From a virus (lineage: Duplodnaviria > Caudoviricetes), in IMG/VR virus record IMGVR_UViG_3300037264_000296, positions 1 to 59,648 of that record: a DNA stretch of 59,648 nucleotides, one strand, 5' to 3'. Below the pieces are notes generated by a model. The model worked only from the letters and a program-made list of their open reading frames with translations. It ran no database searches and was not told the DNA's origin. This document shows, one piece after another, positions 6,448-55,293 of the stretch (position 1 is the stretch's first letter; every line of letters begins with the position of its first letter). The translations under genes and the position numbers were made by a program.

Positions 6448-9400
6448 ATGCCATCTTTACTATCAGATAATCCATTATTATCATTCAATTCATTATTACC
6501 AGATGATGCTTCTAATAAAGCTAATGAACTGTTAGATAAGCTTAACCAAAAGAAAGTAGCTTTAGGTAAGCAATATGTTGACTATGATAATCTTGAAGTA
6601 GTTGATGGTGATACTGTACATAAGAAAGATACAGGTGAACAGTTTAGACTACAGTTTGATAAGTCAGGTTATTCAATAGATCCTTATGAAACTAATCATG
6701 GGGATATATTTACTGCTAAAGAAGATACTCAAAAGAAATTAGCAAGACAAAGACAGTATTTATTAGAACAAACTAATAAAGATAAATGGTTTGATTTTAC
6801 TAAAGCTAACCCAGAAGATATTACTAATGAAATGATCTTTGCTAAAGGGGAAGAAGCTAAACAAAGATTAAATAATGCTCTAAAAGGTAAGAAAGGTATT
6901 GAGTTAAATACTTGGGGTGAAGATATATTTCATAGAGGATTAACTGATATTAGATTAGATGGTTCACAGGATAGTTTATTAAGTGAAATTAATACCCCTG
7001 AATTAAATACAGGATATAACCAGAAATATAACTCAATTCAAAAACTTAAAGATAGTTTAAATAAAAATGCTGTAATGCAAGATGTAGGAGATATAGCTAC
7101 TAACATTGCAAGTAGAACTGTTGGTTTAACTGGTTTACCTGCTGAATTAATTGATATGGGTTCTGGTGCTGTAACAGCTATTGCTAACAAGTTAGGAGCT
7201 GATTTAAATGAACCGTTATCTTATACAAAAGCATTAGCTGATGGGGTAGAGATTCCCTTTACAGATGGATTTAGAGTAGGATTTGATCCTAATAGAGCAG
7301 CTAAAACTATTAAAGAAACACTGCAAAGTAATGAAGCTGTTGCTAATGAAGTTGAATATGCTAAACGTAAAGCTGATGCTATAAGAACTAAAGGGGATGA
7401 ATTATCTTTTGGTGAAGAGTTTGGTTTATCAATGAAGTTTATGGGAGATCATCCTAAGTATGCTATTGATGCTGTTGCTGAAAGTATTCCTGACTTCTTC
7501 TTAATGGGAGCAGCAGCTAAAAGAGTTGCTGGTAAAGTAGCTGAAACAGCTCTTAAAGAAGCTGGTTTAACTATTACTGATGTAGGTGCTAAAGATGTAT
7601 TAGCTACTGCATATAAAGCTAACAAAGGTAGAATATTAGGAGCTAGTGCATTATCAGAAGGTATTATATCTGCTGGTTCAGATTATCAAGGATTAATAGA
7701 TGAAGGTGTTAAATCAACTAAAGCAGCATTACCTTCTATTGCAGCAGGTGCAGCAGTTAGTTTAATTAATCTTGGTTTGGGGCATTCTCCTTTAGGTGAT
7801 GCTATTACTAAGTTTGTAACTAAAGATGCTTCTAATGCAGCTAAAGAAACTCTTAAAGGAGCACTAACTAAAACATTAGTATCTGTTGGAAGTGAGAGTA
7901 TTGAAGAAGGATTACAATCTCCAGCAGAAACTATTCTTACTAACGTAGCTAGAGAGAAAGCTAATTTATTAGAAGGAGCAGGATATTCTGCTGCTGAAGG
8001 TACTGTTTCTGGAGGTATATTAGGTGGAGGAATGACTGCATCACATACTTCATTAGATGCTCTTAAATCATCTTTAAATGCTCGTAGAGAAGCAAAACAA
8101 GAAGAGTTAGCTAAAGCTACAGCTAATCCAATGAAAGATGCTACAGATGCTTTAAATTCATATAACAGTGTAGATACTCCTTCACCTGAAATGAATGATT
8201 CATTAGTTAAAGCAGCTACTGATTTAGGTATTGATATTAAAGATAAACCAATAAATGAAATACATGATGAAGTAACTAAAGCTACTAAATATTCTTCTGT
8301 AGAGGATTATCAAGCTATTAAAGGAATGGATAGTGATACTGATTTAAATGAACATATTACTAAAGTAGTTGGTTCTAAAGTATCAAATGATGTTCAGATA
8401 GATGTATTAGAACAATTACAAAAGAAAGATCCTACAAGTTTTGAAACTCGTAAAGAAGAACTACAACCTAAATTAGATAAATTATATCAACAATCTACTA
8501 CTAAAGATGATCCTAATTTAATTGCAGATAATATTCATACAAGTAAGTTATCTCCATTAGCTACTGCTAGTATTCAAGCAATAGATAAAGAAGCTAATAA
8601 GCTTACATCTAAAGATCCTGAAGTAATATCTAAAATTGAACCAACATTATTATTAGAGCATACTGCTAGGATTGTTAATGAAGCAGGTAAAGTAGATCTA
8701 AAAGACACTACTACTAAAGAAGAATATAGAAATGCTGTAAATGTGTCTTTAAATGGGTATTGGGTTGTTGCTGCTAGTACAGGTAATATAACTGAAGAGA
8801 AAGCTCAAGAACATCTTAATAGAGTTCAACGTACATTAGCTAATTTAGAAAGTCACATAGTAAACAATACTGATATGACTAATAAGGAAGATATTAATTT
8901 ATTAATTAAAAGTAATTATGGTTCAGTAGCTCCTGAAGAATTAACCCCTGAAAATAAGAAATCTGTTCCTACTGAAGATTTAATAAAAGCAAGTAAAGAT
9001 ACCACTGATAAAATTAAAGCTGCTAGAGCTACTACTACATTGAAATTAAGAGGTGTTTATTCGCAATTAGAAGATAAGCTTAAAAAAGTTCCTGGAATAT
9101 TTAATCAAGTAATTAAAGAAGTATTTGAGGGTACTGGTGATAAACCTGCTATTAAAGAACATCAATTACTTATTATGGCAGCAATGGATAGTGATAAACT
9201 AAGCTCTAAAGCTGCTACTAAAACTGCTTTAAATGATTTTGGTAAATGGATTAATTATCATTCTGAGAAACAAATAGAATTAACTAAAGTAAATCAAGCA
9301 ATTATTAAACATGGTGTTGATTCACAGCAAGCTATAGATGCTTTAGTTGATTTAAATACTTGGGCTAAATCTAAAAATGTAGTAGATATTGAAGGTAATG

Positions 9401-12400
9401 CTAGAGAATATAAAATCTCTAAAAAGAATGGTAAATTAAAATTTGGTAATTTAACTGAACAAGTTACTTTAGAAGCTAAAGCTATGCAAATAGCTTTTCA
9501 TGCTTTAAAAGATGAAGCTAGTGCTAAGTTTGGTAAAGAAGATTTACCTGATGCTATGAGTCATTTACTTGATACTGAAGTAGTTACTACTCCTGTAGTA
9601 TCAGAAGAAGATAATTCTACTGTACAAACTGAAGAGGATTTAGCTAATAGATTTAATGAAGAACAACCTTCTAATACTACTGAACCAAGCAACCCAAATA
9701 AAAATAAGGATAAGTTTACCCCAACACACACTTTAACGAACTCCAAAGGTACTAGAACTATTGTTGTACAAGAAATTAAAGATGATTACTTAAATACTGT
9801 ATGGCGTACTGAAGATGGTGGAAACATACATAATATTGAAAATTGGATTGGAGATGGTTGGGTTATTTCAAAAATTAAAACTGAAACTAAATCTAAAGAA
9901 GAGTCTATCTTTTCTAAATTAAAAAAAGAACTTGCTGGTTTAAAAGCATACATTCTTGTAGATATTTTATCTGGATTAAAGACATTCAAAGCTATATATA
10001 GAGGAGAAAGAGTTTCATTACTAGATTTAGAAAATGAAATTTTACGTTTAAGAAAAAAAGCTAATAAAGGGGAATTAACTAAACAAGATTTAATTAATAC
10101 ATACATTTTATGGGTTACAGATACTAGAATACAAATGAGTATATCTGAAGAATCTGTAAAAAATAATCAACAATTATATGTTGATATGCTTGATGAAATA
10201 GTATCTTCATTAAAAGAATCAGATTTTGCATCTGATACTGAAGTAGAAATTATAAATGTACAGGAACAAATTTCAGCAAATGAAAGCTTTGGTAAACAAA
10301 CAAACACTGCTGAAGAAGTAGAATTGTATGTAAAAACAAAAGAAGAATTAAAAAATAAATTAGCTAGTTTAAAAGAAAAACTTACTTTAGAAACATCAAC
10401 AGAAGAAGTAACACCTACTGAAGAAGCTAAACCAGTAGAAGATAATTCTACTGTTACAGAAGAAACTACTCAATCAGAACAAGATACATTACAAGATGAA
10501 TCTGAAATACCTCCTATAACTGATGAAGAATTTCAGTCTATGTATGATTCATATCAAGAAGAAATACAAGATGAAGAGTCTAATGTAGAACCATTAACAG
10601 CGAAGCAACTGCAAAGTATATTTAATAATATCATTGGTTTAATTAAAGCAAATAAAATAGCTACAACTAATCCAATTGAAATGGCTAGTAAGATTCTTAC
10701 ACACTTATTTAAAACAGATTTATCTCTATCAGATGTTAAAGATAAGATGGAGAATTACATTCTTCCAGGTATTAATGACAAAACTATTAAAGATAACACT
10801 AATAAAGATTATTTGTTTGGTTTAGAACTTGGTAGAGAAGAAGCTAATAATAAATTCTTAGAATGGCAAGACAAAAGACTTAATGAATTAGCTAATGCTA
10901 AAACTGATACTCAAGAAGCTAATCCTGATGTTAATCCTGAATTCTTTAAAGAAAAATTAAATAGTAAAGGTGGTAAATTCAGATTATTTTTTACAATAAA
11001 AGGAAGTAAAAAATATATTCCTTTTATAAAAGTAGAATCACCTATTAAAAATGTAACAAATCTTGTGCCATTAGAAACTGTTGTAGATTCTAAAAATAAA
11101 GAATTACCTATTAAATATTATTTATTTAATAAATTTGTCAATACAGCAGGTGTAGGAAGACTTTATTCTAAAGCCCTTGGTTTACTAAAAGATTCTACTA
11201 AAGAAACAGTATTTACTAAGTACCCAGACTTATTTAGAAACTTAGAGAATAATGTTCATATTATTAGTCAACTTAAATCTATTGAAGGTAAAGTTGCTAT
11301 AGATACTATTGCTGAGTTTGTAGAACAATTTCATAATGAATATGTTAAAGCTAATACCAAAATATCAGACACTATTGATAGAAAGAAATTTACTTCTGAA
11401 GTAGGTAAAAAGTTTAGTAAAGATATTCAAGCACAGTTAGCAGTATTTAACAAAGATAATTCAGAAGTAGATTTAAATGTAGAAGCTTTGCTTAAACACT
11501 TTGAAGGTAATTCTGATGTAACAAGATTTATAAATAAATTTGCTAAAGTATTATTGAATGTAGAATCTAATCCTTCATTACTTTTACATAATGATGATGA
11601 AGTAATAGATAGAAATATCACTGCTCAATTAGCATTACATGCTTTAAGTTGGATGATTAATACAGGAACTAAAACTCTCTATACTGAAAGAGAAATGACT
11701 CTTCACATGCTTGGTAAAGAAGAAGCTACTGCTCCAAGTGATGAAGCTATGGCTGCATTATCTACTATGGGATTGGTAAGAGGTTATGTAGCTAATCAAA
11801 TGTCAGGCTCTATTGTTAATTATATGGGTTTTAAACCAAATGATTATATTCCTAAAGAGATGTTTCCTAAGTTTGAAACAGCATTAGGATTAAGTGCTAT
11901 TGATACTTTAGAGAGAATGGGTTATGTAGAATATAAAGGTATTCCACAAGCTTCTATGAATGCATTTATGACTGGAGAAGATACTGTCAGTAGAGGTTAC
12001 ACAAGTGAATCTTCTATATTAAAAGATGCAACTATATTTGTAAGAATTAAATCTGATTTAGCTAAAAACAATGAACCAATATTAGTTAAACATGTAAGAG
12101 AGTTGTTTGATAAAGTTAGACCAGGTAATAAAGAAATACAAGATATATTCAGTATTGAATTAGTTGAAACAGAATATTCTGCTACTCCTTGGGAAAGATC
12201 TAAGTTATTACAGATGCTTGGAGAAAGAAATGGAATACTTACATTTGGTAATTCAAGAACTCAGTATGCTAAAGATGATAGAAAAGCTGCATTGAATGGT
12301 GCTAAGTCAGCATTTGACAATAGAACTGCTGCTAATGATTTAGCTAATAAATTAGGCGATGAGTTTCTTAAAGAGATTAATTTTGAAAAGAAATTAGATG

Positions 12401-15400
12401 CTGAAGATCATATTGGTAATATTGAATCTAATAAAGGATTATTGTCTTCTACAATGTCTATGCTTGATTCTTGGAAAGAATTAAATAGTTTAGGTGCAGT
12501 AGTTTATTTCTATTATAAAAAAATGTATCAAGGCAGATACCAAGGAGTTGGTTCAGGACATCCACAAACTAATAAATTAGTTAGATGGACTAGATCATTA
12601 TGGAAAGGTGAAGTTAAAAAAGATTATTCAGATCCAGTATTTAAACAGTTTATGCAAGCTGTTATAGAAGGATTTAAAAAGAAACCTTCTCAAATGACTG
12701 ATGCTGAAATACAGGATTCTTTTATTGAAATATATGAAAAACATATTCCTGTATTAAATTTAATTAATGAAGATACTCTTACTGAAGAAGAGAAAGATAC
12801 TATTGTACAAGCTATACATGCTGGTGGTGAGAAGTATCATACTATGGCTGTATTAGCTGCATTGTCTGAGTATCATTCAACTATTGGAGATACATTTACA
12901 ACTACACTAATGAGAGAGATTGATGGTATTACTAATGGTCCTCTTATCTCATTAATTATGATGTCTGGAGTAAAACAAACTTTTTTTGAAGGAAAACCTG
13001 TAGCTGTACATATTGAAGAATTACAAGCAGGAGGTGTATCTATTACAGGAGAATCCTACTTAGATTTTGTTAAAAACAACCCTGATACTAATGATATGTA
13101 TAAGATTGTCGCAAGATATATTAATATATATATATCTGAATTAAATGAAACATTACCTTTAATAATTAGAGAAGGTAAAAATAGATTTTTAAAAGATGTG
13201 CGAACTCCGTTACAACAACGTATTGCTATTATGGATGCACATCCTAATAGAATAGAACCTCAAGTATGGTTAAATGCAGTTCATAATCTTGTAGGTATTA
13301 TTGATAGAGGATTTGCTAAGAATCCTACTACAGTATTTATCTTTGGTGGTTCAACTATTAAAATTGCTGCTAATGTAGCAAGTAAAGTATTATTTGATAT
13401 TAATAATAAATTATTAGCAATATCTAAAATAGAAGATGAAGTAACTCAATTAGATGCTGTAAAAGAATTACATGCTAACTTATTTAATAGTATTGGTTTA
13501 CCAATTAATCTATTAACTGAATATACTAAAGCTCCTAATAAGAAAACATTCTTACTAAACTGGCAATTAACTAAACCACAAAAAACTATACTTAGAAATA
13601 GTGTAATAGCTACTTATACTCCTGTAATTGATAATGCAGTTAAAACTGTATTTGCTAGATTATTAGAGAATAGAAAGTTAGTAAACAATGTTTATCAATT
13701 AACTAATAAAATATTCAAACATGAGTTTGAAAGAAAAATAGATGAGTTAGTTAAACAAGGTATTACTATTACTGCGGAAGATATTGATAATATTCTTTTA
13801 GAGTTACAACCTCTAATGCCTGATATTGCTATATTCAATGCTGAAGATATTAAAGAACAGAGACTTCAATTATGGAAACCTGAATCAGCTAAACAAGGTA
13901 AAGCAGATTATAAAGTACAAATAAACAGTCCTAAAGATTCTAAACCAATGACTATGATGGGATTAGATGAACAAGGAAATGTATTTGAGTCTTATATTAT
14001 CAATGAAGGTACTGATAACGAAATAGAAATTCATGTACCTCAATCTGCTTCTGCTTATGCTAAAGATATGATTATTGCTGCTATGAGTGTAAGAGCACCA
14101 ATTACTTCTACACATAATGCTGATAGTCATGTAATACAACAACTACTTAAACTAAACCAACAAGTATTAGGAATACATGATGCTTCTATGATGGGATTAG
14201 ATAGAGTAGAAGAAGTATCAAGAGGAATGAATGAAGCATTGTTTAATTTACTTGCTAACTATAATTACTTTAATGAAGTATATAAGCATTTAGAAAGAGT
14301 CAAATCATATAATAAAAAGAATATTAATTCTTGGTTTAATGGTACGGTAAACAGAGTTAATGCTAAAGCAGAAGGATTACTTAGTGAAGTAAATGAAGAA
14401 GCACGTCCTGTAGATATTACTCGTGAAATAGTAGGTTCTTGGAATACTGTTTGGGTTAGAGATCCAGAGACTAGAAGAAATGTACAACGTATTGCATATA
14501 ATTCATTTGATGAGTTTATTGCTTATTTTAAAGATAAATCTGAAGAGTTATATAAAGAATTACAAGACAATGTAATCACTCCTATTAAACAAGGAGGTTC
14601 ATTTGGTAACTATAGTGGTCAATATCCATTTGTACCTGTATATACTCCTACAGGTAGTACAGAAGAACAAATAGTATCTATTATTGAATCTGGATTAAAT
14701 CAAGGTAATACAAATACTAAACCAGAAATTAAACCAAGTGAAAGTAATGAAATATATTCTCAGTTAGGTAACAAAACTAAATCTACAAATGTAGTTATTA
14801 CATCTTGGAGTAATTTAAAAGGAGTAACTAAAGCTATTACACCTAATGGTGTTGTAGCTACAAGAATATATAATTCTAATGAACATTTTGGTAATCCTTT
14901 TAGTCATGATCCTGCTGGTAAAACACAAGGACTTATTCAAACAGAAACTATACAAGAAGCTGTTGAAAGATATATTGATTGGGTAATTAACTCAAGTGAT
15001 ATTAGAGCTAATTGGATTAGAGCACAGTTGCAATCTGGAGTACTAAAAGGTAAACCAATTCTATATTACAAAGAGTTAGGAGAACCATCTCATGCTACAG
15101 CTTTAGATTATTTAATCAATAAGTATGATTGGGGTAATAAACCAAGTGAAGATACTTCTACTAAAGTAGGATTTACACTTAAAGGTAAGCCAGGAATATA
15201 TGCTAGTTTGCTTAGAAAAGACCAAGGTAAAGCGAATATAGTTAATGCATACATTGGGTATGGTATTAAAGGATCGTCTACTGAAGCTTATTTAAATGAT
15301 GCTCAAGGTAATGTTCCAACTAATGAAAGCATTAATCCAACTAAAGATACTATTGCATTTGTAAGTATTAATGGTAATAAACAATTAACTCCAGAAAATA

Positions 15401-18400
15401 AAACTAAAACATTAGAACAAATTAAAAGAGTTTTAAATGCAGGTGGAGTTATTGTTATGGATAATTCTAGGATTGCTAATAGTATTCATAACAAATCTGG
15501 TGAAGGGGTTATTCAACAAGAGATTCAATCTATTCCTGGAATAGGTATGATGGAAGTAAACGGTAATAATCAATATAAGATGATTAATACTTCTACTCAA
15601 ACCAATGAAGATAATAACTTTGTTTTAACTAAAGATAAAATTCAAAAATTAAAAGATTTTATTAATAAGTATATTAATTCTTCTGATACTTATAAAGTAT
15701 CTGATTTAATAGATAAAGTTAAATTATTAAATCCTGAGTTTAAAGATTTAGATATTTTAAAATATATGTATGGCAGTCTGTTATCTACATATTATTCTGA
15801 TGAGAATCAAAAGAAAGATTTTAATGTTGGAAACAAAACTCCTGATATGTTTTATCAACATAAAAACTATTGGGAGAGTAGAAAGAATTATGGACTTAAA
15901 TTAGTTAAAGATAATCAATCTGGAAAAGCTAAGATTATTTCTATAAACAATAATCCTAATCTTGGTTCACAAGAATCTACTACAACTAATTTATTTCAAA
16001 ACCCATTAGGTAATATTGACTCTACTAATGTGTTAGATACTGCTGAGAGATTAGAGAATTTAGGTAATGTAAGAGATGAAGATACTCATACAACGCATTT
16101 AAAGAGCATTCTAGGAGGCTTTATATCTAAGGTACTACAACCATTGCAGTACTTTGAAATGACTTCACCAGAAGCGAATATAGGCGAATATGATCCATCA
16201 GGTAAAATAGGTTTAAACATATCTAATGCTCCTATAGCTCCTACAGTTAAAGTACCTATGAGTGCATTAACTACATTCGTACATGAGTTAGTTCATGGTG
16301 TTACTGCTAGTGCTTTATTCGATCCTAAGAATAGTATCTTAAGAAGTAGAGTACAAAAGATATTCAATCATATTGAAAGGAATATATCTAATGAAGATAA
16401 AGAAAAGTATTCTCATATCTTTGCTAATAAGAATAAAACACAATTAGCAAATGGTACATTTGTTAATCATGGTTTAGCTGAATTAATAGCATTTGCTGAA
16501 ACTGAACCAATGTTTAGAGAATTACTTAATTCATTACCTAAAATGACTGTAGGTAAGATTACAGAGACTTGGGATGAATCTAAAGAGAAGTTTATAGAAG
16601 CTAATCTATTAGAGATTATATCTAATGTATTTAATAAGATTATGGTTTGGTGGAATGATAAAATTAAAGGTGAACATTCTACGGATGTATTAACTCAGTT
16701 ACATACTTTAACAGTACAGTTATCTACAGCACATCTTAAAGCTAAAAGTACTATTTATGACTTTAAATTACTTTCTGATAAGTCAGATAACTTTGTATTA
16801 AATAAATTACATAGATTATTAGTAGAACCATTACTTAAATTATTAGGTAATAATTACTTTACTTTAAATCCAAATAAGAATGCAGCAGCAATGTCTAACT
16901 CTGCAAGAGACTTACTTAATGCTCCTGGTAGTGCTAAAGCAAAAGTAGATAAGCTATTTGAATTCACAGATATTATGAAGAAGAATTTAAATATATCTGA
17001 AGAGCATTGGCTTACTTATTCATTAAATGAAATTACAGGACAGATAGCTGTAGGTAACTTTACTCAAGCTCTTAATATGACTAAGAAGTTAAGAGATAAA
17101 GTTGTAGCTATTATTCAGAATACAATCTCTTCTAATTTAAGAGCTGGATTTAAAACCAATCTAACTAAACAATTAGATAGAGTTGTTTACAACACTTTAT
17201 TAAAAACAGATTTAAGTTCATTACAAGATTATTATAAAGATGATTTATTAAATATGTTTGATGGTTCTAAACGTAAAGTAGAACAAGAGAAACTTAAGAA
17301 AGAAATTCTTAATAATAAGAATGGTAAATTGTACTTAGGACATACTTACAATACAGCATTCTTTATGGTTCATAACCAAGCTACTAAATCATTCCAGCAT
17401 AGTACATTAATGAATGCTACTCAGATTTATAATATGTATGGTTCAAACTTTAAACCAGTAGGCGATAAAGATAGTACAGTAGAGTTGATAGATAAATTGA
17501 TTGGTTTGTATACTTTAGATCTTGTAAACCAAGAAGAATTAAATACTCTTAAAGATTTGTTTAATACTGATAGTCATGGTTTAAATATGTCTATGGAAGT
17601 TCATAGACAACAGAAAGAACATCACTTAAATGATATTCTTAAAGGTAATAAGAGTTTAGTTGTTAAAGGTTCTACTAAAGAATTAACTAATCCAAATAGA
17701 CAAATTATTATTGCTACTGCTGCTGAAGAAGAGAAACTTAAGTTAAACCATTACACTAAAGGTAATAAGATTGTTTATGAAGGTAAAGAGTTATATGTTT
17801 ATCATTCTAAGTTTAGATTAATGCAACCTTGGGTTCAAGGTATTATCTCATATACTCACATGAATAATATCTTAAGTGATATGAAAGGAGTAATGAAGCA
17901 ATCTGATGGATTAGATCAAATTATTCAAGATGGAAAATTAGATGCTTCAGCTAAGATTAAAACTATGAAAGAGAATGAAGCTAATGCTAATAAAACAGTA
18001 TTTGATACTACTGAAGCTGACTATACTCTTAATCCAGTATTCAATGGTAAAGGATATGTAAGTAAACATTCATTTATGTTAAGTAATCAAGATAAAGAAA
18101 ACTTACTTGATATGAATACTAACTTTACTCATGTATTAGGAGCTATGGTAGCTAATATTACTGATAAACTTAATACACAAAGACTTAATGATGAATCAGC
18201 TAAGATGCTTATTAAGAATAGAATGGATAATCTTGAGACTAAAGGTATTCAATGGATTACTTTAAGTAAAGATGCTAAGACTAAGAATGAAAGAGATATT
18301 TGGAATAAATTAACACCTGAATTTAAGAAAACTATATTAGATTTGTCTGGTTCAAATGAAGTAGTTGTTAATGCTAAGTTATTAAAGATGATATTTGGAC

Positions 18401-19446
18401 AACGTAAGTTATCTTTATCAGATTTCTTTAGACCTGCTGATGAACAAGAGTTAAGTACATTTGTTAAATACTTTGGTTCACAGCTATATCCATATATTAA
18501 GAAAGTTAATTTAGATAGAGGTACTCAAATATGGCAAGAAGGAATTGGTTATCTTAAAGATCAATTGGTTGTTAAATCTGGTACTGTATTAGGTGGTAAT
18601 GAAGTAAGTAATGCATGGATAGCTTACATGGAAGGCATGACACTTATACAGTACTTTAAAGCTAAGATTGAAGCACTTAGATTAGTTATTGGTTATCATA
18701 AATTACAATCTCAAATAAATGATATTGAGTATTTACTTAAATATGATAAAGAAATGAGTTCTACTATGAGAACTAACCTTGAAACCAAGTTAAGTAATAT
18801 TTCTAGTCTAGCTAATAATAGCTTAGTTAAAAAATATGACATTGCTGGTCAAATGAAAACTATTGTTGATGAGATTGGTGAAGATGAGAATTTGTGGAGT
18901 TTTAGAAATGAAGTCTTTGAGAATAGAATTAAATCTGTTACTGATAAACTACCTAAACCAATAAAAACTATTGGTAGAGAAGTATTTATGACACATGATA
19001 CAAAAATGTATCAGTTAATGAGAGACCTAACTCAGATGTCTGATTTAACGTCTAGGATTGCTGTAGGCGAGTTTAAACAGTCACATGGTATGACTGAGAA
19101 GGAAGCATTACAATTGGTTGATGAAGCGTTTATTAACTACGATATACCATCACATCAGAATGTACAATTTGCTGCTGATATGGGATTGTTTATGTTTAAT
19201 AAATTCTTCTTTAGGATTCAGTCAGTAATAGCTAGAGAAGTAGGACAACATCCTGCTAGATTCTTAACATTACTTGGTATGGAACAAGTGTTTGGAGCAC
19301 AAGAAGCAATCCATCATTCTCTTATGACTCCAGATGAGTTAATAGGACATGTTAGTAACCCATTGAAACTTCCTTATGCAATATGGGATTCTAACTTTTA
19401 CAACTGGTTATTTAGTTTTCATGCTCCTGTTTATCAACCTGTGTAG
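6448..19446 (+). CDS. Virion-encapsidated RNA polymerase (N4 gp50-like) with extra domains
   Basis: 4332 aa, no Cys found on reading; motif A REIDGITNG, motif B RGFAKNPTTVFIFG, motif C GIHDA; HELVH motif; C-terminal AFINYD...GLFMFNKFFFRIQ. Confidence 0.95.
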   Translation: MPSLLSDNPLLSFNSLLPDDASNKANELLDKLNQKKVALGKQYVDYDNLEVVDGDTVHKKDTGEQFRLQFDKSGYSIDPYETNHGDIFTAKEDTQKKLARQRQYLLEQTNKDKWFDFTKANPEDITNEMIFAKGEEAKQRLNNALKGKKGIELNTWGEDIFHRGLTDIRLDGSQDSLLSEINTPELNTGYNQKYNSIQKLKDSLNKNAVMQDVGDIATNIASRTVGLTGLPAELIDMGSGAVTAIANKLGADLNEPLSYTKALADGVEIPFTDGFRVGFDPNRAAKTIKETLQSNEAVANEVEYAKRKADAIRTKGDELSFGEEFGLSMKFMGDHPKYAIDAVAESIPDFFLMGAAAKRVAGKVAETALKEAGLTITDVGAKDVLATAYKANKGRILGASALSEGIISAGSDYQGLIDEGVKSTKAALPSIAAGAAVSLINLGLGHSPLGDAITKFVTKDASNAAKETLKGALTKTLVSVGSESIEEGLQSPAETILTNVAREKANLLEGAGYSAAEGTVSGGILGGGMTASHTSLDALKSSLNARREAKQEELAKATANPMKDATDALNSYNSVDTPSPEMNDSLVKAATDLGIDIKDKPINEIHDEVTKATKYSSVEDYQAIKGMDSDTDLNEHITKVVGSKVSNDVQIDVLEQLQKKDPTSFETRKEELQPKLDKLYQQSTTKDDPNLIADNIHTSKLSPLATASIQAIDKEANKLTSKDPEVISKIEPTLLLEHTARIVNEAGKVDLKDTTTKEEYRNAVNVSLNGYWVVAASTGNITEEKAQEHLNRVQRTLANLESHIVNNTDMTNKEDINLLIKSNYGSVAPEELTPENKKSVPTEDLIKASKDTTDKIKAARATTTLKLRGVYSQLEDKLKKVPGIFNQVIKEVFEGTGDKPAIKEHQLLIMAAMDSDKLSSKAATKTALNDFGKWINYHSEKQIELTKVNQAIIKHGVDSQQAIDALVDLNTWAKSKNVVDIEGNAREYKISKKNGKLKFGNLTEQVTLEAKAMQIAFHALKDEASAKFGKEDLPDAMSHLLDTEVVTTPVVSEEDNSTVQTEEDLANRFNEEQPSNTTEPSNPNKNKDKFTPTHTLTNSKGTRTIVVQEIKDDYLNTVWRTEDGGNIHNIENWIGDGWVISKIKTETKSKEESIFSKLKKELAGLKAYILVDILSGLKTFKAIYRGERVSLLDLENEILRLRKKANKGELTKQDLINTYILWVTDTRIQMSISEESVKNNQQLYVDMLDEIVSSLKESDFASDTEVEIINVQEQISANESFGKQTNTAEEVELYVKTKEELKNKLASLKEKLTLETSTEEVTPTEEAKPVEDNSTVTEETTQSEQDTLQDESEIPPITDEEFQSMYDSYQEEIQDEESNVEPLTAKQLQSIFNNIIGLIKANKIATTNPIEMASKILTHLFKTDLSLSDVKDKMENYILPGINDKTIKDNTNKDYLFGLELGREEANNKFLEWQDKRLNELANAKTDTQEANPDVNPEFFKEKLNSKGGKFRLFFTIKGSKKYIPFIKVESPIKNVTNLVPLETVVDSKNKELPIKYYLFNKFVNTAGVGRLYSKALGLLKDSTKETVFTKYPDLFRNLENNVHIISQLKSIEGKVAIDTIAEFVEQFHNEYVKANTKISDTIDRKKFTSEVGKKFSKDIQAQLAVFNKDNSEVDLNVEALLKHFEGNSDVTRFINKFAKVLLNVESNPSLLLHNDDEVIDRNITAQLALHALSWMINTGTKTLYTEREMTLHMLGKEEATAPSDEAMAALSTMGLVRGYVANQMSGSIVNYMGFKPNDYIPKEMFPKFETALGLSAIDTLERMGYVEYKGIPQASMNAFMTGEDTVSRGYTSESSILKDATIFVRIKSDLAKNNEPILVKHVRELFDKVRPGNKEIQDIFSIELVETEYSATPWERSKLLQMLGERNGILTFGNSRTQYAKDDRKAALNGAKSAFDNRTAANDLANKLGDEFLKEINFEKKLDAEDHIGNIESNKGLLSSTMSMLDSWKELNSLGAVVYFYYKKMYQGRYQGVGSGHPQTNKLVRWTRSLWKGEVKKDYSDPVFKQFMQAVIEGFKKKPSQMTDAEIQDSFIEIYEKHIPVLNLINEDTLTEEEKDTIVQAIHAGGEKYHTMAVLAALSEYHSTIGDTFTTTLMREIDGITNGPLISLIMMSGVKQTFFEGKPVAVHIEELQAGGVSITGESYLDFVKNNPDTNDMYKIVARYINIYISELNETLPLIIREGKNRFLKDVRTPLQQRIAIMDAHPNRIEPQVWLNAVHNLVGIIDRGFAKNPTTVFIFGGSTIKIAANVASKVLFDINNKLLAISKIEDEVTQLDAVKELHANLFNSIGLPINLLTEYTKAPNKKTFLLNWQLTKPQKTILRNSVIATYTPVIDNAVKTVFARLLENRKLVNNVYQLTNKIFKHEFERKIDELVKQGITITAEDIDNILLELQPLMPDIAIFNAEDIKEQRLQLWKPESAKQGKADYKVQINSPKDSKPMTMMGLDEQGNVFESYIINEGTDNEIEIHVPQSASAYAKDMIIAAMSVRAPITSTHNADSHVIQQLLKLNQQVLGIHDASMMGLDRVEEVSRGMNEALFNLLANYNYFNEVYKHLERVKSYNKKNINSWFNGTVNRVNAKAEGLLSEVNEEARPVDITREIVGSWNTVWVRDPETRRNVQRIAYNSFDEFIAYFKDKSEELYKELQDNVITPIKQGGSFGNYSGQYPFVPVYTPTGSTEEQIVSIIESGLNQGNTNTKPEIKPSESNEIYSQLGNKTKSTNVVITSWSNLKGVTKAITPNGVVATRIYNSNEHFGNPFSHDPAGKTQGLIQTETIQEAVERYIDWVINSSDIRANWIRAQLQSGVLKGKPILYYKELGEPSHATALDYLINKYDWGNKPSEDTSTKVGFTLKGKPGIYASLLRKDQGKANIVNAYIGYGIKGSSTEAYLNDAQGNVPTNESINPTKDTIAFVSINGNKQLTPENKTKTLEQIKRVLNAGGVIVMDNSRIANSIHNKSGEGVIQQEIQSIPGIGMMEVNGNNQYKMINTSTQTNEDNNFVLTKDKIQKLKDFINKYINSSDTYKVSDLIDKVKLLNPEFKDLDILKYMYGSLLSTYYSDENQKKDFNVGNKTPDMFYQHKNYWESRKNYGLKLVKDNQSGKAKIISINNNPNLGSQESTTTNLFQNPLGNIDSTNVLDTAERLENLGNVRDEDTHTTHLKSILGGFISKVLQPLQYFEMTSPEANIGEYDPSGKIGLNISNAPIAPTVKVPMSALTTFVHELVHGVTASALFDPKNSILRSRVQKIFNHIERNISNEDKEKYSHIFANKNKTQLANGTFVNHGLAELIAFAETEPMFRELLNSLPKMTVGKITETWDESKEKFIEANLLEIISNVFNKIMVWWNDKIKGEHSTDVLTQLHTLTVQLSTAHLKAKSTIYDFKLLSDKSDNFVLNKLHRLLVEPLLKLLGNNYFTLNPNKNAAAMSNSARDLLNAPGSAKAKVDKLFEFTDIMKKNLNISEEHWLTYSLNEITGQIAVGNFTQALNMTKKLRDKVVAIIQNTISSNLRAGFKTNLTKQLDRVVYNTLLKTDLSSLQDYYKDDLLNMFDGSKRKVEQEKLKKEILNNKNGKLYLGHTYNTAFFMVHNQATKSFQHSTLMNATQIYNMYGSNFKPVGDKDSTVELIDKLIGLYTLDLVNQEELNTLKDLFNTDSHGLNMSMEVHRQQKEHHLNDILKGNKSLVVKGSTKELTNPNRQIIIATAAEEEKLKLNHYTKGNKIVYEGKELYVYHSKFRLMQPWVQGIISYTHMNNILSDMKGVMKQSDGLDQIIQDGKLDASAKIKTMKENEANANKTVFDTTEADYTLNPVFNGKGYVSKHSFMLSNQDKENLLDMNTNFTHVLGAMVANITDKLNTQRLNDESAKMLIKNRMDNLETKGIQWITLSKDAKTKNERDIWNKLTPEFKKTILDLSGSNEVVVNAKLLKMIFGQRKLSLSDFFRPADEQELSTFVKYFGSQLYPYIKKVNLDRGTQIWQEGIGYLKDQLVVKSGTVLGGNEVSNAWIAYMEGMTLIQYFKAKIEALRLVIGYHKLQSQINDIEYLLKYDKEMSSTMRTNLETKLSNISSLANNSLVKKYDIAGQMKTIVDEIGEDENLWSFRNEVFENRIKSVTDKLPKPIKTIGREVFMTHDTKMYQLMRDLTQMSDLTSRIAVGEFKQSHGMTEKEALQLVDEAFINYDIPSHQNVQFAADMGLFMFNKFFFRIQSVIAREVGQHPARFLTLLGMEQVFGAQEAIHHSLMTPDELIGHVSNPLKLPYAIWDSNFYNWLFSFHAPVYQPV

Positions 19447-29915: not shown

Positions 29916-31271
29916 TTACACCACTGAACTGCGTTCAGTGTCGTGAGGGATAATAATCTTATACCCATCTTTATATTCTTCTAATGGTGTACTTGCTGAT
30001 AAATGAACTATACAACCTTTTCCATTAGTACAATATGAATATGCACCATCTATTTTTTCAAATATAAATACTGTGTATTCTTCAGAATTAGGATTAAGAA
30101 TGTAAATCTTACTCTTTTTAGGTATTTGATAAAGATTTTTCATAATAGTCTGCTTTTTTATATCCAAGCTCTTCTAACATTTGCTTATTAAGAGGACGTT
30201 TACTGTTACAGATTGCTGCTATGTATGATTGAGCACACTTATAATGTTCAGCAGCTTCAGCTTGTGTTTTAAAAGTTACACTGATATATTTTGAAAACTT
30301 CTTAGCTAAATCATCTCTTTTAATTAGTGTTTTCATTTTGTTTATTGTATGGATGCAGGTTAAGTTTTTGATACTCGTGCTCATATTCAAACCATCTCTG
30401 AGCAAAGATAAGTATCTTTCCTACTTCTGATATAGGTAAATCTTTTTTACCCATTCTAGCTAAGTATGCTTCAATATGAGCAGACATCTTAGCTCTAAAG
30501 ATACCAGGAGATTCTTCTCTAAACCATCTAGCTATTAAATCTTCACCTGATTGTGTTTTATAATTTTCATTCATGCTAATAAATCCTCTGGTTTATAATC
30601 TGGTTGAGAATCTAAGAATGCTCTTAATTGTTGTTTGTATAAATCCTTTACTTTTATAGAAGGAATTGGAATTATAATTTCACACCCATCTTTAGCTATC
30701 TCAGATATAAATGCTATTGCATCTTTAAAGTAAGGTACGTTCATTTAATACTCCTTGAATAATTAATTCAATTTCATCATCTTTTTTAACTTGTAACATG
30801 GCTAAAGCAATATTAAAGTTATTATTAACAGAACCAGCATAAAATACACATAATTGAATATAGAATCTCCAGTCTCTAATTCCATAATGCATTATTAAAC
30901 CAATATCAATAATAATACTTCTAAGTTCTTTAAACTCTTCTTGTGTTAATCCTTTAAATAGTTCCATTTTAGTGTATTAAGATATAAACGATGTTCAATC
31001 CTAGAACTAAACCTAAACAATAAAAAGCATTAGTTTTTCTTTTTATTTGTGAATATAAGTTTTGGTTGTCTTCATATAATTTAGTGTTTTTATTATGCAA
31101 ATCTGTGTTATTAGCTTCTCTATTTGAAATAGTAGAAGATAATTGTGAAATCATTGTATTTTTAGATTCTACTAAAGTTTCTAAATCTACAACTTGTTTT
31201 AATAATTTAGGATAGTCTAATGATTTATCCCAAATAACTGTTCCTAATTTAGAAATGTTAATTACTTTCAT
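29916..31271 (-). CDS. Cluster of small hypothetical genes, including an HTH protein (30118-30336) and a coiled-coil protein with C-terminal TM segment (30969-31271)
   Basis: TQAEAAEHYKCAQSYIAAICNSKR is HTH-like; ORF track. Confidence 0.5.
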
Positions 31272-32382
31272 TCTCTTTCCTCTTTTTAAGTTCTGTTGAT
31301 ACTGTTTCCAGTATTTGTTGTTTAGTTAAATTATTCATAAGAGGGATGGCAACATCCCACGTTTTAAACACTTCTAAGTTGCTCCCTAATTTAACTATAT
31401 CGTGCTGTAGCTCAGGTAAATCACACCATTGCATACATTCTATTAGATTATTATTTACGAAGCTTAAACAGCCAATAGAATCAGTACAGAGTATATATGC
31501 AGCATCATGTATCATTGCACATATTTGAATTTCATGCCTGTACTCTGAATCATATACGCGTTGCATAAATTCAATTACAGCTCTTAATAATAACTGTCCA
31601 TAACTTTGACCACCTATCATATTACCTGCTGTTCTTGATTCAGCAGCAGCTTCTCTAGGAGTATTTCTTTCACCTAACATACATTGATGAAGTATTGGTG
31701 TACGAAGTCTTAAACCAAATGCACTTGTTACATACCCATCTTTAGTTGCTTGGATTAGTTTATCTTGAGTCCATTGATCTGATACTTTGTATAGTTCATG
31801 GTAATTGGTTTCAATTGCCTTAGCTTCATTTACAGGAATACCACAGTTATTAACTAACGTAGCGAAACTACCCATATAAGTAAGTGCAAATGTGATTGGT
31901 TTAGATGCTTGTCTATATTTAGGGTATTTATCTTTAATACTGTTAATAGATTCTTTTGTATCAACAATATCTGTTAATTTATCTTTGTAATAATAGGCTG
32001 TGTTAAAACAATGTGAGTCTAAATCTTCAATTAAAGGTCTTAATTTATTTGGGTCTTTAGTAATTAAAGCATTAATCACGCTCTCTAAAGATGAATAATC
32101 AGCTCCACAATAAATCATTCCTTTAGGTGAAGGAAAACATTTCTTAATAATCTTTCCATACACAGAATTACTAGGAATAGTCATTAACAATGGACTACTC
32201 ATTCTTCCTGATACTGTACCTCCTAATTTAAAACTAGAATGAAGATAGTAATTACCATCTTCTTTCTGTATTGATTGTTTATAAAAAGTATTAATGAACG
32301 TCCCAAGTATTTTTTCTACTTGAGACAATTCAATTAAAGCATTTAATAGTTTACATATTTGTATGGCTTCTTGTCGTGTCAT
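31258..32382 (-). CDS. Family A DNA polymerase, C-terminal (palm/fingers) part
   Basis: GTVSGRMSS, motif A GADYSSLE, motif B RQASKPITFALTYMG, motif C MIHDA. Confidence 0.9.
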   Translation of the reverse strand: MTRQEAIQICKLLNALIELSQVEKILGTFINTFYKQSIQKEDGNYYLHSSFKLGGTVSGRMSSPLLMTIPSNSVYGKIIKKCFPSPKGMIYCGADYSSLESVINALITKDPNKLRPLIEDLDSHCFNTAYYYKDKLTDIVDTKESINSIKDKYPKYRQASKPITFALTYMGSFATLVNNCGIPVNEAKAIETNYHELYKVSDQWTQDKLIQATKDGYVTSAFGLRLRTPILHQCMLGERNTPREAAAESRTAGNMIGGQSYGQLLLRAVIEFMQRVYDSEYRHEIQICAMIHDAAYILCTDSIGCLSFVNNNLIECMQWCDLPELQHDIVKLGSNLEVFKTWDVAIPLMNNLTKQQILETVSTELKKRKENESN

Positions 32383-41032: not shown

Positions 41033-41896
41033 CGTTTATATTCAACTAAGTTCGTTAGACTTAGCTCGTTTTAAAAGTCTATAATAATGTGTTTTACTTA
41101 TACCATATTTCTTATTTGCAGCAGTAAATCCTATTTCTAACGGATTTAATTCTGGATATGTAGGAATTTTTCTTTTATTACATTCACTAAAGAATTTTTT
41201 ATTTTCTTCTGAATGTTTCATTCCTAATGCTGGTTTTCTTCCATGTCTTTTTATAGATAATTTTTTTTGCCATTCTTCTTTTTGTGCTTCAGGTATTATA
41301 TAACCACCTTCACCACCATCAGCTAAGTTTAACAAATTCCAATTATTTTTTCTTCCAAAAGAAATCCAGTATTTTTCTGCTAAACAACACTCTTCCTTAG
41401 TTAAAAAAGAGTTTCGTAAACAGATGATAAAATTATCTATACCATGTTTACGCATACAATCATATAAAGGTGATTTCTTACCTTTTAAAGCCGAACTTTT
41501 ATGTTGTATTAATCTTGTATTTAAGTTGTTTTTAGTCATACCTATATACATGCGATTAGTTTCAGCTGAAACTAAAAAATATATGTTATACATTATTTAT
41601 TCTTATAAACTGCTTATACTTTCATATAAGACTAGACTATATCATCATCCTCATTTGTAGGATGTTCTGTACTTCCACCCACTTGAGTGTACTCCTTAAA
41701 AGGATAGTCGTTGAACCTTCAAAAGTAACTGCATTATATCACTATGTTAAACCTAATGGTACAGTTATTTAAGCTTGGCTGCTGATTGCCCAATCTTTAC
41801 AATTATTACTCTTTGGTATGTAAAGCTCTAAGGGTGTTCCAGCAATTCACAGAATTTTCTTACATAAATTACTTTATGTAGGTGCTATATTAATTA
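41033..41896 (-). mobile_element. Group I intron in nrdJ (864 nt)
   Basis: P/Q/R/S-like elements AATTGCTGGAA, AATCAGCAG, CAACGACTA, GATATAGTCT; exon ends in U pairing with G in AGCAC; intron ends in G; splicing restores TCV-KPSGT in frame. Confidence 0.9.
41042..41593 (-). CDS. Intron-encoded GIY-YIG homing endonuclease
   Basis: NIYFL...MYIG...RLIQH...E...LLNLADGG; NUMOD3-like GMKHSEENKK. Confidence 0.9.
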   Translation of the reverse strand: MYNIYFLVSAETNRMYIGMTKNNLNTRLIQHKSSALKGKKSPLYDCMRKHGIDNFIICLRNSFLTKEECCLAEKYWISFGRKNNWNLLNLADGGEGGYIIPEAQKEEWQKKLSIKRHGRKPALGMKHSEENKKFFSECNKRKIPTYPELNPLEIGFTAANKKYGISKTHYYRLLKRAKSNELS

Positions 41897-48529: not shown

Positions 48530-49570
48530 TTAATTTAATGCATAATTAGCATCACGGATTAGATCGCCTAATCCAAGTTCTTTTTGTTTATAATCATAAT
48601 CAATTCCCATTAAGTCTTTGACTAATTGAGACATGACATTGCCTTCGTAATAATCAGCAGTAATGTTGTTATAGTGTCTTCTCATTTTGTTTACATTAGG
48701 TAATTGACATCCATACGCATCATGTATAGTTAAAATATTAAATCCAGTACCCTCACATCTAATAATCATTTCGTCAGTAAGATCTGCATCTCCTCCTTGA
48801 ACAACATTAGCTACAATCGGTACTGCATAATTAGTTGGTTCACCTCTTGAATCTAATAGATAACTAAAACTACCTTTCAAACCATATATGTTTTGTATCC
48901 TATGAGGATCTCTAAACTTATCTGGTTTAGTTAAACATCTAGCTTTTACTTTACTAAAGAACTTACTCCATTGATATTCACCTGATTCCGTATTCCACAT
49001 GTTTATAAGTTCATCTGGAATGTCTAATAATGCAGGCATATTCTTTTTAATAGCAGCAAAGAATGCTTTTAACTCTGGAGTATTATAACCAAATATTTCT
49101 ATTGGTTTAGCTTTACTTTTATATCCAAGAGTCATTGTTGCAGGTTTAACATGATCCTTTCTATTTAAGTGTCCTGGTTCATTACCTAAAGTAATCCAAT
49201 TCTCTTTAGGCAACATTTCATTCATCGTTGGTATAACATTAGTATATGGATCTTGACATACTCCAGTGTCAATTAAATTACATTGTTCCATAGACTTTCT
49301 ACATCCTTGCATTAAGGACATAACTTGTAAGCCACTAAAAGTTGCATCAAGATAAATAATATGATTAATCATATTACCTCTTTGTACATTCCTAATAGCT
49401 CTTACATCCTTCATAAACATAGGATGATTATCAGCAGCTACTTCATAATCTTCTAACTGAGATAAGTTATCTTCAGTCCAAGTCATTAGTTCTTCGTAAC
49501 TTCCTTTTAAACCCGCATTTTGAGCTGTACTATATAATAACCATTCGTAAGGTGTATATTCTTGAAACAT
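48530..49570 (-). CDS. RNA polymerase II subunit 2 (N4 gp16-like)
   Basis: MFQEYTPYEWL, LDATFSGLQ, KPATMTLGY, ANVVQGGD, TIHDAY, C-terminal YALN. Confidence 0.9.
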   Translation of the reverse strand: MFQEYTPYEWLLYSTAQNAGLKGSYEELMTWTEDNLSQLEDYEVAADNHPMFMKDVRAIRNVQRGNMINHIIYLDATFSGLQVMSLMQGCRKSMEQCNLIDTGVCQDPYTNVIPTMNEMLPKENWITLGNEPGHLNRKDHVKPATMTLGYKSKAKPIEIFGYNTPELKAFFAAIKKNMPALLDIPDELINMWNTESGEYQWSKFFSKVKARCLTKPDKFRDPHRIQNIYGLKGSFSYLLDSRGEPTNYAVPIVANVVQGGDADLTDEMIIRCEGTGFNILTIHDAYGCQLPNVNKMRRHYNNITADYYEGNVMSQLVKDLMGIDYDYKQKELGLGDLIRDANYALN

Positions 49571-53197: not shown

Positions 53198-53227
53198 TTT
53201 CATTATATAAAAACATGCTTTTAGAGC
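53198..53227 (-). promoter_or_regulatory. Repeated promoter-like element (other copies 53703-53732, 54301-54326, 55223-55247, 55652-55676)
   Basis: Minus strand CTAAAAGCATGTTTTTATATAATGAAA; first two copies identical over 30 bp; each 29-51 nt upstream of a start codon. Confidence 0.75.
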
Positions 53228-53668: not shown

Positions 53669-53770
53669 GATATTTCTCCAAAATAGGAATTAAAGTGATA
53701 TTTTTCATTATATAAAAACATGCTTTTAGAGCTTTACAACTACCTACACCTTTCGATGTAGGTAAGAATG

Positions 53771-55186: not shown

Positions 55187-55293
55187 GGTAATACTCCTGA
55201 TCAGAGATAGAATCGAATTTGATTCATTATATAAAATATTGCTTTTAAAGAACTTAAATACCTACACCCAATTAAGGATGTAGGTAAGTTGGT

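Follow-up and report, generated by a model that had tools for sequence, protein, structure and literature searches.

The window analysed here, a 59,648-nucleotide stretch of viral DNA (IMG/VR record IMGVR_UViG_3300037264_000296), is an AT-rich (29.5% GC) fragment of an N4-like phage genome that is ~80% complete and derives from freshwater or sediment metagenomes. Its N4-like gene set includes a major head protein, an N4-type primase (E 2e-265), an exonuclease, an SSB, Sak4 and both RNAPII subunits. The phage also carries its own DNA polymerase gene in addition to the primase. A promoter-like motif occurs in five copies between 53.2 and 55.7 kb, a region in which a stable hairpin was not demonstrated. 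The following features of the giant virion RNA polymerase (vRNAP) gene and of its RNAPII relative are used below.

6448..19446, + strand: giant virion RNA polymerase gene, an ORF for a 4332-aa protein with 0 Cys
11311..14628, + strand: polymerase (mini-vRNAP-like) domain, residues 1622-2727 (AlphaFold2 model, Foldseek)
12523..12537, + strand: T/DxxGR-type motif MYQGR, R2030 corresponding to N4 R424 (alignment, translation checked)
12901..12963, + strand: motif A TTLMREIDGITNGPLISLIMM, catalytic D2159 at 12922-12924 corresponding to N4 D559 (alignment)
13306..13347, + strand: motif B RGFAKNPTTVFIFG with R2287, K2291 and F2299 (alignments, translation)
13342..13344, + strand: TTT codon of F2299 (alignments, contigs)
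14113..14115, + strand: codon of H2556 in APITSTHNADSH, probable counterpart of T7 H784 (weak local hhalign match)
14152..14208, + strand: motif C LNQQVLGIHDASMMGLDRV, catalytic D2578 at 14179-14181 corresponding to N4 D951 (alignment)
16282..16296, + strand: HELVH (HExxH) motif at residue 3279, downstream of the polymerase domain; N4 gp50 carries HELVH too
48530..49570, - strand: homologue of the N4 RNAPII large subunit, motif B NRKDHVKPATMTLGYKS with Tyr (PHROG 2051)

A distant N4-like virion RNA polymerase

The C-terminal part of the giant protein (residues 3191-4288) matched PHROG 2206, 'virion RNA polymerase', at E 5e-249. A tblastn search matched 277 phage records at ~20-23% identity, and these were vRNAPs wherever they were annotated. 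An AlphaFold2 model of the polymerase domain (mean pLDDT 75.6, pTM 0.75) retrieved N4 vRNAP structures at all of Foldseek ranks 1-10 (E 9.5e-27 to 9.5e-23, TM ~0.6), led by the N4 mini-vRNAP 3c3l_B (E 9.5e-27, TM 0.60). T7 RNAP followed from E 2.8e-11, together with mitochondrial RNA polymerases. The distance from known members is considerable: phmmer with the whole protein returned 0 matches among PDB sequences, and N4 was reached through the fold search only. Similarly, blastn with 4 kb of the vRNAP gene gave no match in the phage collection, and the sole Pfam match was a sub-threshold hit to N4_RNAP_helical (E 0.0019). An IMG/VR search with the single vRNAP protein found no relative, but an alignment-based scan of the same resource did find loci.

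The polymerase motifs are those of N4. R2030, D2159, R2287, K2291 and D2578 align with N4 R424, D559, R666, K670 and D951, which we take to be the catalytic sites of that enzyme; the numbering agrees with the legend in PMC3715699. The Arg column of the T/DxxGR motif is at least 90% conserved in a 47-row alignment. The protein has no cysteine in 4332 residues, as is also true of N4 gp50 (0/3500) and of P0003 (0/4499), a related protein from an independent contig. According to PMC3821669, the absence of cysteine from vRNAP is thought to be needed if the protein is to traverse the tail and periplasm. An HEXXH zincin-like metallopeptidase module fused to N4-like RNAPs has also been described, and the architecture of the window protein, a vRNAP-type C-terminal domain plus HExxH, fits that description (PMC5512222). 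The best fold match is the N4 mini-vRNAP, the other catalytic residues are kept, cysteine is absent and the genomic context is N4-like; the window protein is a true, though remote, member of the N4-like virion RNA polymerases. The initial annotation had made this assignment, and fold search, motifs and alignment all bear it out. Judged from the model, the polymerase is functional-looking, with a predicted T7-like right-hand fold and all catalytic residues other than the motif B Tyr present.

A phenylalanine in motif B

Motif B (13306..13347, +) reads AGAGGATTTGCTAAGAATCCTACTACAGTATTTATCTTTGGT, translated RGFAKNPTTVFIFG, and has the pattern R-x3-K-x7-F-G. Its Phe, F2299, is encoded by TTT at 13342-13344 (+), inside the 4332-aa ORF at 6448..19446 (+); both codon and residue had been read correctly from the DNA, as translation and alignments confirm. 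In phmmer and MAFFT alignments, motif B runs column for column with that of N4 gp50, RGIAKNPLTITIYG, with 9/14 residues identical. The F2299 column corresponds to Y1675 of full-length N4 gp50, which is Y678 in mini-vRNAP numbering. An hhalign comparison of a 15-row profile with T7 RNA polymerase (E 0.0055) placed F2299 on Y639; T7 residues 627, 631 and 639 were checked and are R, K and Y. These alignments show that the motif B match is homology and not chance, and they agree with the earlier motif B call and its equation of F2299 with N4 Y678 and T7 Y639.

The window departs from the strict motif B consensus, Rx3Kx7YG, in having Phe where Tyr is expected. However, this consensus does not define the family: the accepted members LIT1, AM.P2 and phCDa have Phe, and Humphriesvirinae have Y-S versus Y-G. 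The RNAPII large-subunit homologue of the same phage has Tyr, which falls on the Tyr of KQAIMTALYGS in the N4 RNAP2 chain 6dt7_B (phmmer, E 4e-23).

The window is a metagenome assembly, and Phe could in principle stem from faulty sequencing or assembly, or from a polymerase gene that is inactive and decaying; no evidence supporting either was found. The codon at 13342-13344 is identical in Logan contigs from 4 runs and 3 studies, in a contig-level comparison that leaves room for rare read-level variants. In one of these contigs 11/124 bases differ from the window elsewhere, yet the codon is the same. P0003, at 84% identity, has the same motif B. The 13-kb frame is open, the remaining catalytic residues are intact and cysteine is absent. 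Sequencing error, which the initial annotation had named as a way in which its reading could fail, is effectively excluded as the source of Phe by this agreement between contigs of four runs, and an artefact of any of these kinds is extremely improbable.

Phe is an inherited state of two large clades

A 47-row maximum-likelihood tree (LG+G4, short search, with a long-branch warning attached) contains 21 Phe rows and 26 Tyr rows. The window's own clade of 10 rows (SH-aLRT 100) has nine Phe and one Tyr. A second clade of 12 rows (SH-aLRT 100), which takes in the cultured Pseudomonas phages LIT1, AM.P2 (Luzseptimavirus) and phCDa, is Phe throughout. At least 3 Tyr/Phe changes are needed on this tree. 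The AU test does not reject a tree that unites all the Phe rows in one clade (p-AU 0.279), and one origin of Phe and two are both compatible with the data.

Broader sampling gave the same two residues. Among 80 IMG/VR vRNAP loci, a non-random set found with a single motif A pattern and ordered by similarity to the window, 53 have Phe and 27 have Tyr, with no other residue at this column; the codons are TTT (34), TTC (19), TAT (18) and TAC (9). A phmmer search of a 1.84-billion library listed 150 proteins, only ~30 of them vRNAPs, as a promiscuous domain at the query end drew most of the matches. Phe was present in 21/32 database proteins among the matches listed (18/28 aligned, plus 3/4 by pattern). 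Among 21 cultured Schitoviridae, chosen by hand for diversity from 245 matching records, three have Phe (LIT1, AM.P2 and phCDa) and 18 have Tyr.

In the deep clade to which the window belongs, and in a second large one, Phe is thus fixed and inherited; it has been maintained through synonymous codon changes (TTT, TTC). The initial annotation had presented it as a remarkable substitution while allowing that Phe might prove common in this clade; the motif B alignment and tree show that it is common, in nine of ten clade rows, and 53 of the 80 IMG/VR loci carry it too. Nor is it new. As early as 2010, the legend of supplementary Figure S2 in Ceyssens et al. (PMC3715699) spoke of 'the Y678F substitution' in N4-like Pseudomonas phages. 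That paper covers LUZ7, LIT1 and PEV2.

A histidine at the probable second sugar-sensing position

T7 RNA polymerase carries a second selectivity residue, H784. In T7, changes at H784 are reported to affect selectivity as well, and Y639F/H784A is more permissive than Y639F (PMC4538805, PMC4551944). When the 47-row sub-alignment was compared with T7 residues 730-883 by local hhalign, H2556 fell on the His of T7 VHSQDG, colinear with motif C, in a weak match (E 0.029, probability 1.7%). An hhalign of the profile against the C-terminal part of T7 aligned motif C alone (E 0.28), and global-mode hhalign was discarded for this column because its alignment was meaningless. On this alignment evidence, H2556 is probably the T7 H784 counterpart, a second sensor of the ribose and the minor groove.

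His occupies the H784-like column in 29/47 rows, including 21/21 Phe rows, and in 51/51 callable Phe loci from IMG/VR. It is absent from 18/26 Tyr rows and 19/27 Tyr loci. These counts raise the possibility of full compensation, in which the 2'-OH check is performed by other residues, such as His2556 or altered positions elsewhere in the fingers, and Phe is without functional effect. Phe has also stayed stable along the very long branches of both large clades, which suggests no fitness cost and is in keeping with such compensation. However, the association loses its significance when phylogeny is taken into account, because the tree needs only 3 inferred changes of His state. Every one of these changes lies on a Tyr background; tree length amounts to 16.5 units on Phe branches and 22.2 on Tyr branches, which gives this pattern a chance of ~0.19. 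A coupling between Phe and His was therefore set aside as not established, striking as the raw counts are. Furthermore, a scan of all columns found no hydrogen-bond-donor residue that is common to both Phe clades and missing from Tyr enzymes, and T7 Y639F is reported to be relaxed although H784 is present (PMC4551944). Full compensation is unlikely.

Three combinations were seen: Tyr plus His (T7; also the cultured Vibrio phage PG11), Tyr lacking His (N4) and Phe plus His (the window, LIT1 and others). Phe without His, which would correspond in nature to the engineered T7 Y639F/H784A, was found in 0/21 Phe rows and 0/51 Phe loci. We tentatively suggest, with doubt outweighing confidence, that these are three natural sugar-sensor states. 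If selection lies behind the pattern, at least one ribose check must stay, and the Phe-plus-His group would be a source of relaxed 2'-selectivity.

Proposed consequence of the Phe state

The initial annotation had reasoned from the principle that Tyr-to-Phe relaxes 2' discrimination. For T7, the motif B change is reported to loosen discrimination of the 2'-group, and Syn5 Y564F is likewise relaxed at this group (PMC4538805, PMC4551944), so the principle holds for both enzymes. In the window's enzyme, Phe would retain the aromatic stacking role at the O helix end but would have no hydroxyl to form a hydrogen bond with the incoming nucleotide's 2'-OH. The N4 residue Y678 presumably contacts the 2'-OH of the substrate, and a phenotype of an N4 Y678F mutant was reportedly described by Kazmierczak et al. 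in 2002. With Phe lacking the hydroxyl, as in T7 Y639F and Syn5 Y564F, the purified enzyme would probably be less selective than N4 vRNAP in rejecting dNTPs and 2'-modified NTPs. By this analogy, relaxed sugar selectivity of the window's enzyme is plausible. Our literature search found no sugar-selectivity test for any natural Phe-type vRNAP. Within the cell, relaxed selectivity would probably be tolerated, because rNTPs are more abundant than dNTPs, early transcripts do not last long and H2556 is kept.

A stronger proposal is that Phe was selected for dNTP use or for mixed ribo/deoxy products, such as nuclease-resistant early transcripts or primers. Its appeal lies in the analogy with engineered Y639F-type enzymes and in the long conservation of Phe. 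However, the window holds no sign of a second role for the enzyme, and the phage has N4-type primase and DNA polymerase genes of its own. The gene set is common to Tyr-type and Phe-type phages, and in LUZ7 the injected vRNAP is reported to have a conventional role, starting early transcription at hairpin promoters (PMC9163698). Selection for such products is highly improbable. We consider it probable instead that the RNA polymerase works and has Phe as a commonplace trait of its lineage, neither a recent nor a special mutation, and that Phe brings with it the relaxed selectivity described above.

For the window alone this means little, as Phe is the norm of its lineage and had already been noted in 2010 for N4-like Pseudomonas phages. 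More broadly, Phe-type virion polymerases are common among environmental phages, at about two thirds of the loci in our non-random sample. Comparing Phe-type with Tyr-type enzymes could show how single-subunit RNA polymerases cope when their main 2'-OH sensor is lost. Phe-type vRNAPs could also be screened as natural enzymes for the synthesis of 2'-modified RNA. If at least one ribose check is indeed needed, the Phe-plus-His group would offer ready natural polymerases with intrinsically relaxed 2'-selectivity.

Comparison with known systems

The closest characterized system is coliphage N4 gp50 (PDB 2PO4, 3C3L, 9PNQ), likewise a giant Cys-free virion protein whose polymerase domain is T7-like. 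Motifs T/DxxGR, A, B and C occur in both, and their catalytic residues (Arg; Asp; Arg and Lys; Asp) are identical. A downstream HELVH, a homologous C-terminal domain and N4-like neighbouring genes are further common features. However, identity between the two is only about 16-22%. At 4332 aa the window protein is longer than N4 gp50 (3500 aa), and its polymerase domain is followed by an additional mobile module of ~150 aa. It also has Phe in place of Y678, and His where N4 has Gly at the H784-like column.

In its motif B residue, the window protein resembles the vRNAPs of LIT1, LUZ7 and PEV2 (Migulavirinae) and of phCDa, which have a natural Phe at the Y678 position (PMC3715699, legend; confirmed by us in LIT1, AM.P2 and phCDa). 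The His at the H784-like column is shared with them too. Nonetheless, their 12-row clade (SH-aLRT 100) is separate from that of the window, and motif B differs, being KGRN[VI]IKKPLTA[ML]MFGSN in the Pseudomonas phages and IDRGFAKNPTTVFIFGGS in the window.

T7 Y639F and Syn5 Y564F carry Tyr-to-Phe at the homologous O-helix end position. In both, activity is reported to be kept and discrimination against 2'-F, 2'-NH2 and deoxy NTPs to be lowered (PMC4538805, PMC4551944). Those enzymes are laboratory mutants of small promoter-specific polymerases, whereas the window's Phe is a natural, ancient state of a giant, putatively injected enzyme. The window protein keeps its His, as T7 Y639F does and unlike the more permissive T7 Y639F/H784A.

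Motif B and the TTT codon

The stretch of the window at 13306-13347, AGAGGATTTGCTAAGAATCCTACTACAGTATTTATCTTTGGT, translates to RGFAKNPTTVFIFG and reads TTT at 13342-13344, codon 2299 in one uninterrupted plus-strand frame of 4332 aa (6448..19446). Re-reading and translating the window bore out the coordinates, residue number and motif string of the initial annotation. The record comprises 59,648 bases, with a G+C content of 29.5% and a completeness estimate of 80%. Logan contigs from four runs in three studies cover the codon and show no difference there, so that TTT stands up to the sequencing error that the initial annotation had itself raised. The nearest differences lie at 13359 and 13362, and one of the covering contigs is from a relative with 11 differences in 124 bases. 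The identical motif also occurs in P0003, a database protein 84% identical to the window enzyme and derived from another contig. Together, P0003 and the contigs of the four runs (a contig-level comparison that rare variants could escape) effectively rule out an assembly or sequencing error at TTT. Sequence, alignments and contigs thus all confirm a Phe at the motif B Tyr position.

A divergent N4-like virion RNA polymerase

The encoded protein, P0001, is a true N4-like virion RNA polymerase (vRNAP), albeit a highly divergent one. A PHROG search assigned its C-terminal quarter to PHROG 2206, ‘virion RNA polymerase’ (E 5e-249). A tblastn search with its middle part reached 277 phage records at only ∼20-23% identity, and annotated records carry the vRNAP label under the match. 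A PDB sequence search with P0001 returned no matches. However divergent in sequence, residues 1622-2727 could be modelled with AlphaFold2 from 27 sequences (pLDDT 75.6, pTM 0.75), and Foldseek placed N4 vRNAP structures at ranks 1-10 (E 9.5e-27 to 9.5e-23, TM ∼0.6), followed by T7 and mitochondrial RNA polymerases. In a 47-row alignment of polymerase domains, R2030 (T/DxxGR), D2159 (motif A), R2287 and K2291 (motif B) and D2578 (motif C) are all kept. P0001 thus has all catalytic residues and the right fold. Cysteine is absent from all 4332 residues of P0001, as it is from the 3500 of N4 gp50, the coliphage N4 vRNAP, and the 4499 of P0003; a passage of PMC3821669 remarks on this absence in the N4 enzyme. 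Downstream of the polymerase domain, P0001 and the N4 protein both carry HELVH, which in P0001 fits the HEXXH metallopeptidase module said in part of PMC5512222 to go with N4-like RNAPs. The strict YG motif B consensus is missed by the window enzyme and by accepted members of the vRNAP family alike; every other membership test run agreed with the assignment.

F2299 is the counterpart of N4 Y678 and T7 Y639, as the initial annotation rightly held. The window motif aligns without gaps to motif B of N4 gp50 (translated from NC_008720), RGIAKNPLTITIYG, with 9/14 residues identical. The N4 Tyr is residue 1675, which we take to be Y678 of the mini-vRNAP, an offset that agrees with the motif B legend of Ceyssens et al. 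With hhalign, a 15-row vRNAP profile set DRGFAKNPTTVFIFGGS on TRSVTKRSVMTLAYGSK of T7 RNA polymerase and F2299 on Y639 (E 0.0055). The AlphaFold2 model has motif B at a helix end (segment residues 666-677; block pLDDT 77-87).

Genomic setting

The gene has N4-like neighbours: a major head protein, N4-type primase, exonuclease, SSB, Sak4, a split DNA polymerase and both RNAPII subunits. Features discussed below are as follows.

48530-49570, minus strand: RNAPII large subunit, aligned with N4 RNAP2 (6dt7_B; E 4e-23)
31258-32382 and 34417-36027, minus strand: DNA polymerase encoded by two distinct ORFs, which cover consecutive stretches of PHROG 17 (profile 513-922 and 932-1257)
32382-32774 and 32767-33786: ORFs between the DNA polymerase parts, one of 339 aa (PHROG 2475, no assigned function) and one of 130 aa
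41042-41593, minus strand: GIY-YIG homing endonuclease-like ORF, adjoining the ribonucleotide reductase gene (41890-43260)
53201-53223, 53706-53728, 54303-54325, 55225-55247 and 55654-55676, minus strand: five copies of the motif TAAAAGCATGTTTTTATATAATG

The phage's own RNAPII large subunit retains Tyr in motif B, so that Phe is peculiar to the virion enzyme.

The two DNA polymerase ORFs may be the parts of a split gene, or a mobile insertion may separate them. All five TAAAAGCATGTTTTTATATAATG copies are located upstream of the RNAPII genes, in what is presumably the early region, and resemble promoters that contain a TATAAT-like box. An ATG follows ∼30-40 nt downstream of the copies at 53706, 54303, 55225 and 55654, preceded by a GGAG-like site in three cases; the copy at 53201 has GGAG and no ATG in the 121 bases aligned. 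A stable hairpin like those of N4 early promoters was not apparent at any of the five copies.

Directly after the polymerase domain, a module of ∼135-150 aa (window 14677-15147; P0001 residues ∼2744-2900) shares 50-80% identity with stretches of well over 100 proteins that are otherwise unrelated and range from 117 to 6244 aa; these make up most of the 150 matches listed. In Pfam, nothing beyond a DUF4326 match below threshold (E 0.037) was obtained for the module, which appears to be a domain of polyvalent phage proteins, highly mobile and strongly conserved. Three proteins of 4654-5213 aa found via the mobile domain (P0054, P0096 and P0120) carry an R-x3-K-x7-Y-[GS] string without the vRNAP motif A pattern, and may contain another polymerase-like module.

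Distribution of Phe in motif B

Phe is an ordinary lineage trait. Among 28 database proteins aligned over the position, 18 have Phe and 10, including N4, have Tyr; four further vRNAPs lacking a phmmer alignment were read by pattern (three Phe, one Tyr), and all other members of the 160-protein database set were matches to an unrelated mobile domain. Cultured Schitoviridae, sampled as 21 records picked for diversity among 245 matching records, yielded Phe in three, namely LIT1 (Litunavirus), AM.P2 (Luzseptimavirus) and phCDa (Shizishanvirus), and Tyr in 18, of which three Humphriesvirinae read Y-S rather than Y-G. Phe predominates in 80 IMG/VR loci, a non-random environmental sample collected via the motif A pattern: 53 carry Phe, 27 Tyr and none any other residue, with 34 and 23 distinct 19-residue motif strings, respectively. 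TTT (34) and TTC (19) are both in use beside TAT (18) and TAC (9), and Phe has therefore been maintained through synonymous change. Since only Phe or Tyr was ever found at the position, Phe is held in the window's lineage under purifying selection.

A maximum-likelihood tree of the 47 polymerase domains (LG+G4, short search, SH-aLRT support) places the window enzyme and P0003 inside a 10-row clade (support 100) with nine Phe rows, the sole Tyr row being P0140, a 1239-aa fragment. Branch lengths of ∼1 change per site within this clade indicate that Phe has been stable over a very long time. A second clade of 12 rows (support 100), all Phe, contains LIT1, AM.P2 and phCDa. The tree requires at least three Phe/Tyr changes, and a single clade uniting all Phe rows was not rejected (p-AU 0.279). 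The substitution was in print by 2010: the legend of supplementary Figure S2 in Ceyssens et al. (PMC3715699), a paper on LUZ7, LIT1 and PEV2, names the Y678F substitution in N4-like Pseudomonas phages. The initial annotation, which had treated the substitution as remarkable, was thus wrong about its rarity; database, cultured, IMG/VR, tree and literature evidence make Phe common in this clade, an outcome it had named as counting against its reading.

One IMG/VR record, IMGVR_UViG_3300020045_002218 (107,578 nt), holds two distinct vRNAP-like polymerase domains ∼70 kb apart, both Phe-type with unlike motif B strings. These could be two vRNAP genes in a single phage or the product of a chimeric or concatenated assembly.

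A His at the T7 H784-like position

The segment APITSTHNADSH, which precedes the motif C Asp by 22 residues, is similar to T7 APNFVHSQDGSH, which precedes D812 by 28. When the 47-row sub-alignment was compared with T7 730-883 by hhalign in local mode, H2556 (window 14113-14115) fell on H784, colinear with motif C, with weak statistics (E 0.029). This column is His in all 21 Phe rows; the 26 Tyr rows have His (8), Gly (10; the N4 type), Gln (7) or Ile (1). IMG/VR loci behave similarly, with His in 51/51 callable Phe loci (two gave no call) and His (8), Gln (10), Gly (7), Leu (1) or Thr (1) in the 27 Tyr loci; no Phe enzyme without His occurred among these rows and callable loci. Yet the His state changed only three times on the tree, always on a Tyr background. 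With tree lengths of 16.5 under Phe and 22.2 under Tyr, the chance of this is ∼(22.2/38.7)^3 = 0.19, which is not significant given the phylogeny; common descent can thus account for the pattern. We treat the Phe/His coupling as a lead rather than a finding. No residue able to donate a hydrogen bond emerged from a general scan for residues common to both Phe clades and absent from Tyr enzymes.

Sugar selectivity

The initial annotation had proposed relaxed sugar selectivity. Passages of PMC4551944 describe a hydrogen bond from the T7 Y639 hydroxyl to the ribose 2′-OH, acceptance of 2′-fluoro and 2′-amino NTPs by Y639F, termination after a modified nucleotide that H784A is thought to abolish, and use of 2′-F pyrimidines by G542V/H784S, its wild-type Y639 notwithstanding. 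Syn5 Y564F behaves like Y639F according to a passage of PMC4538805. LUZ7, among the three phages treated in the 2010 paper that names Y678F, injects a vRNAP that starts early transcription at hairpin promoters, as part of PMC9163698 describes. By analogy, the window enzyme would transcribe normally but scrutinise the incoming sugar less strictly than the N4 vRNAP does. The literature searched, a single paper library, yielded no sugar-selectivity assay of any natural Phe-type vRNAP.

Comparison with known vRNAPs

The window enzyme is predicted to work like N4 gp50, which is 832 aa shorter overall. Its natural Phe repeats what the 2010 paper on LUZ7, LIT1 and PEV2 had already described. Only two points go beyond that paper: Phe also occurs in a separate, deep, uncultured clade from freshwater or sediment, and it outnumbers Tyr in a non-random environmental sample.
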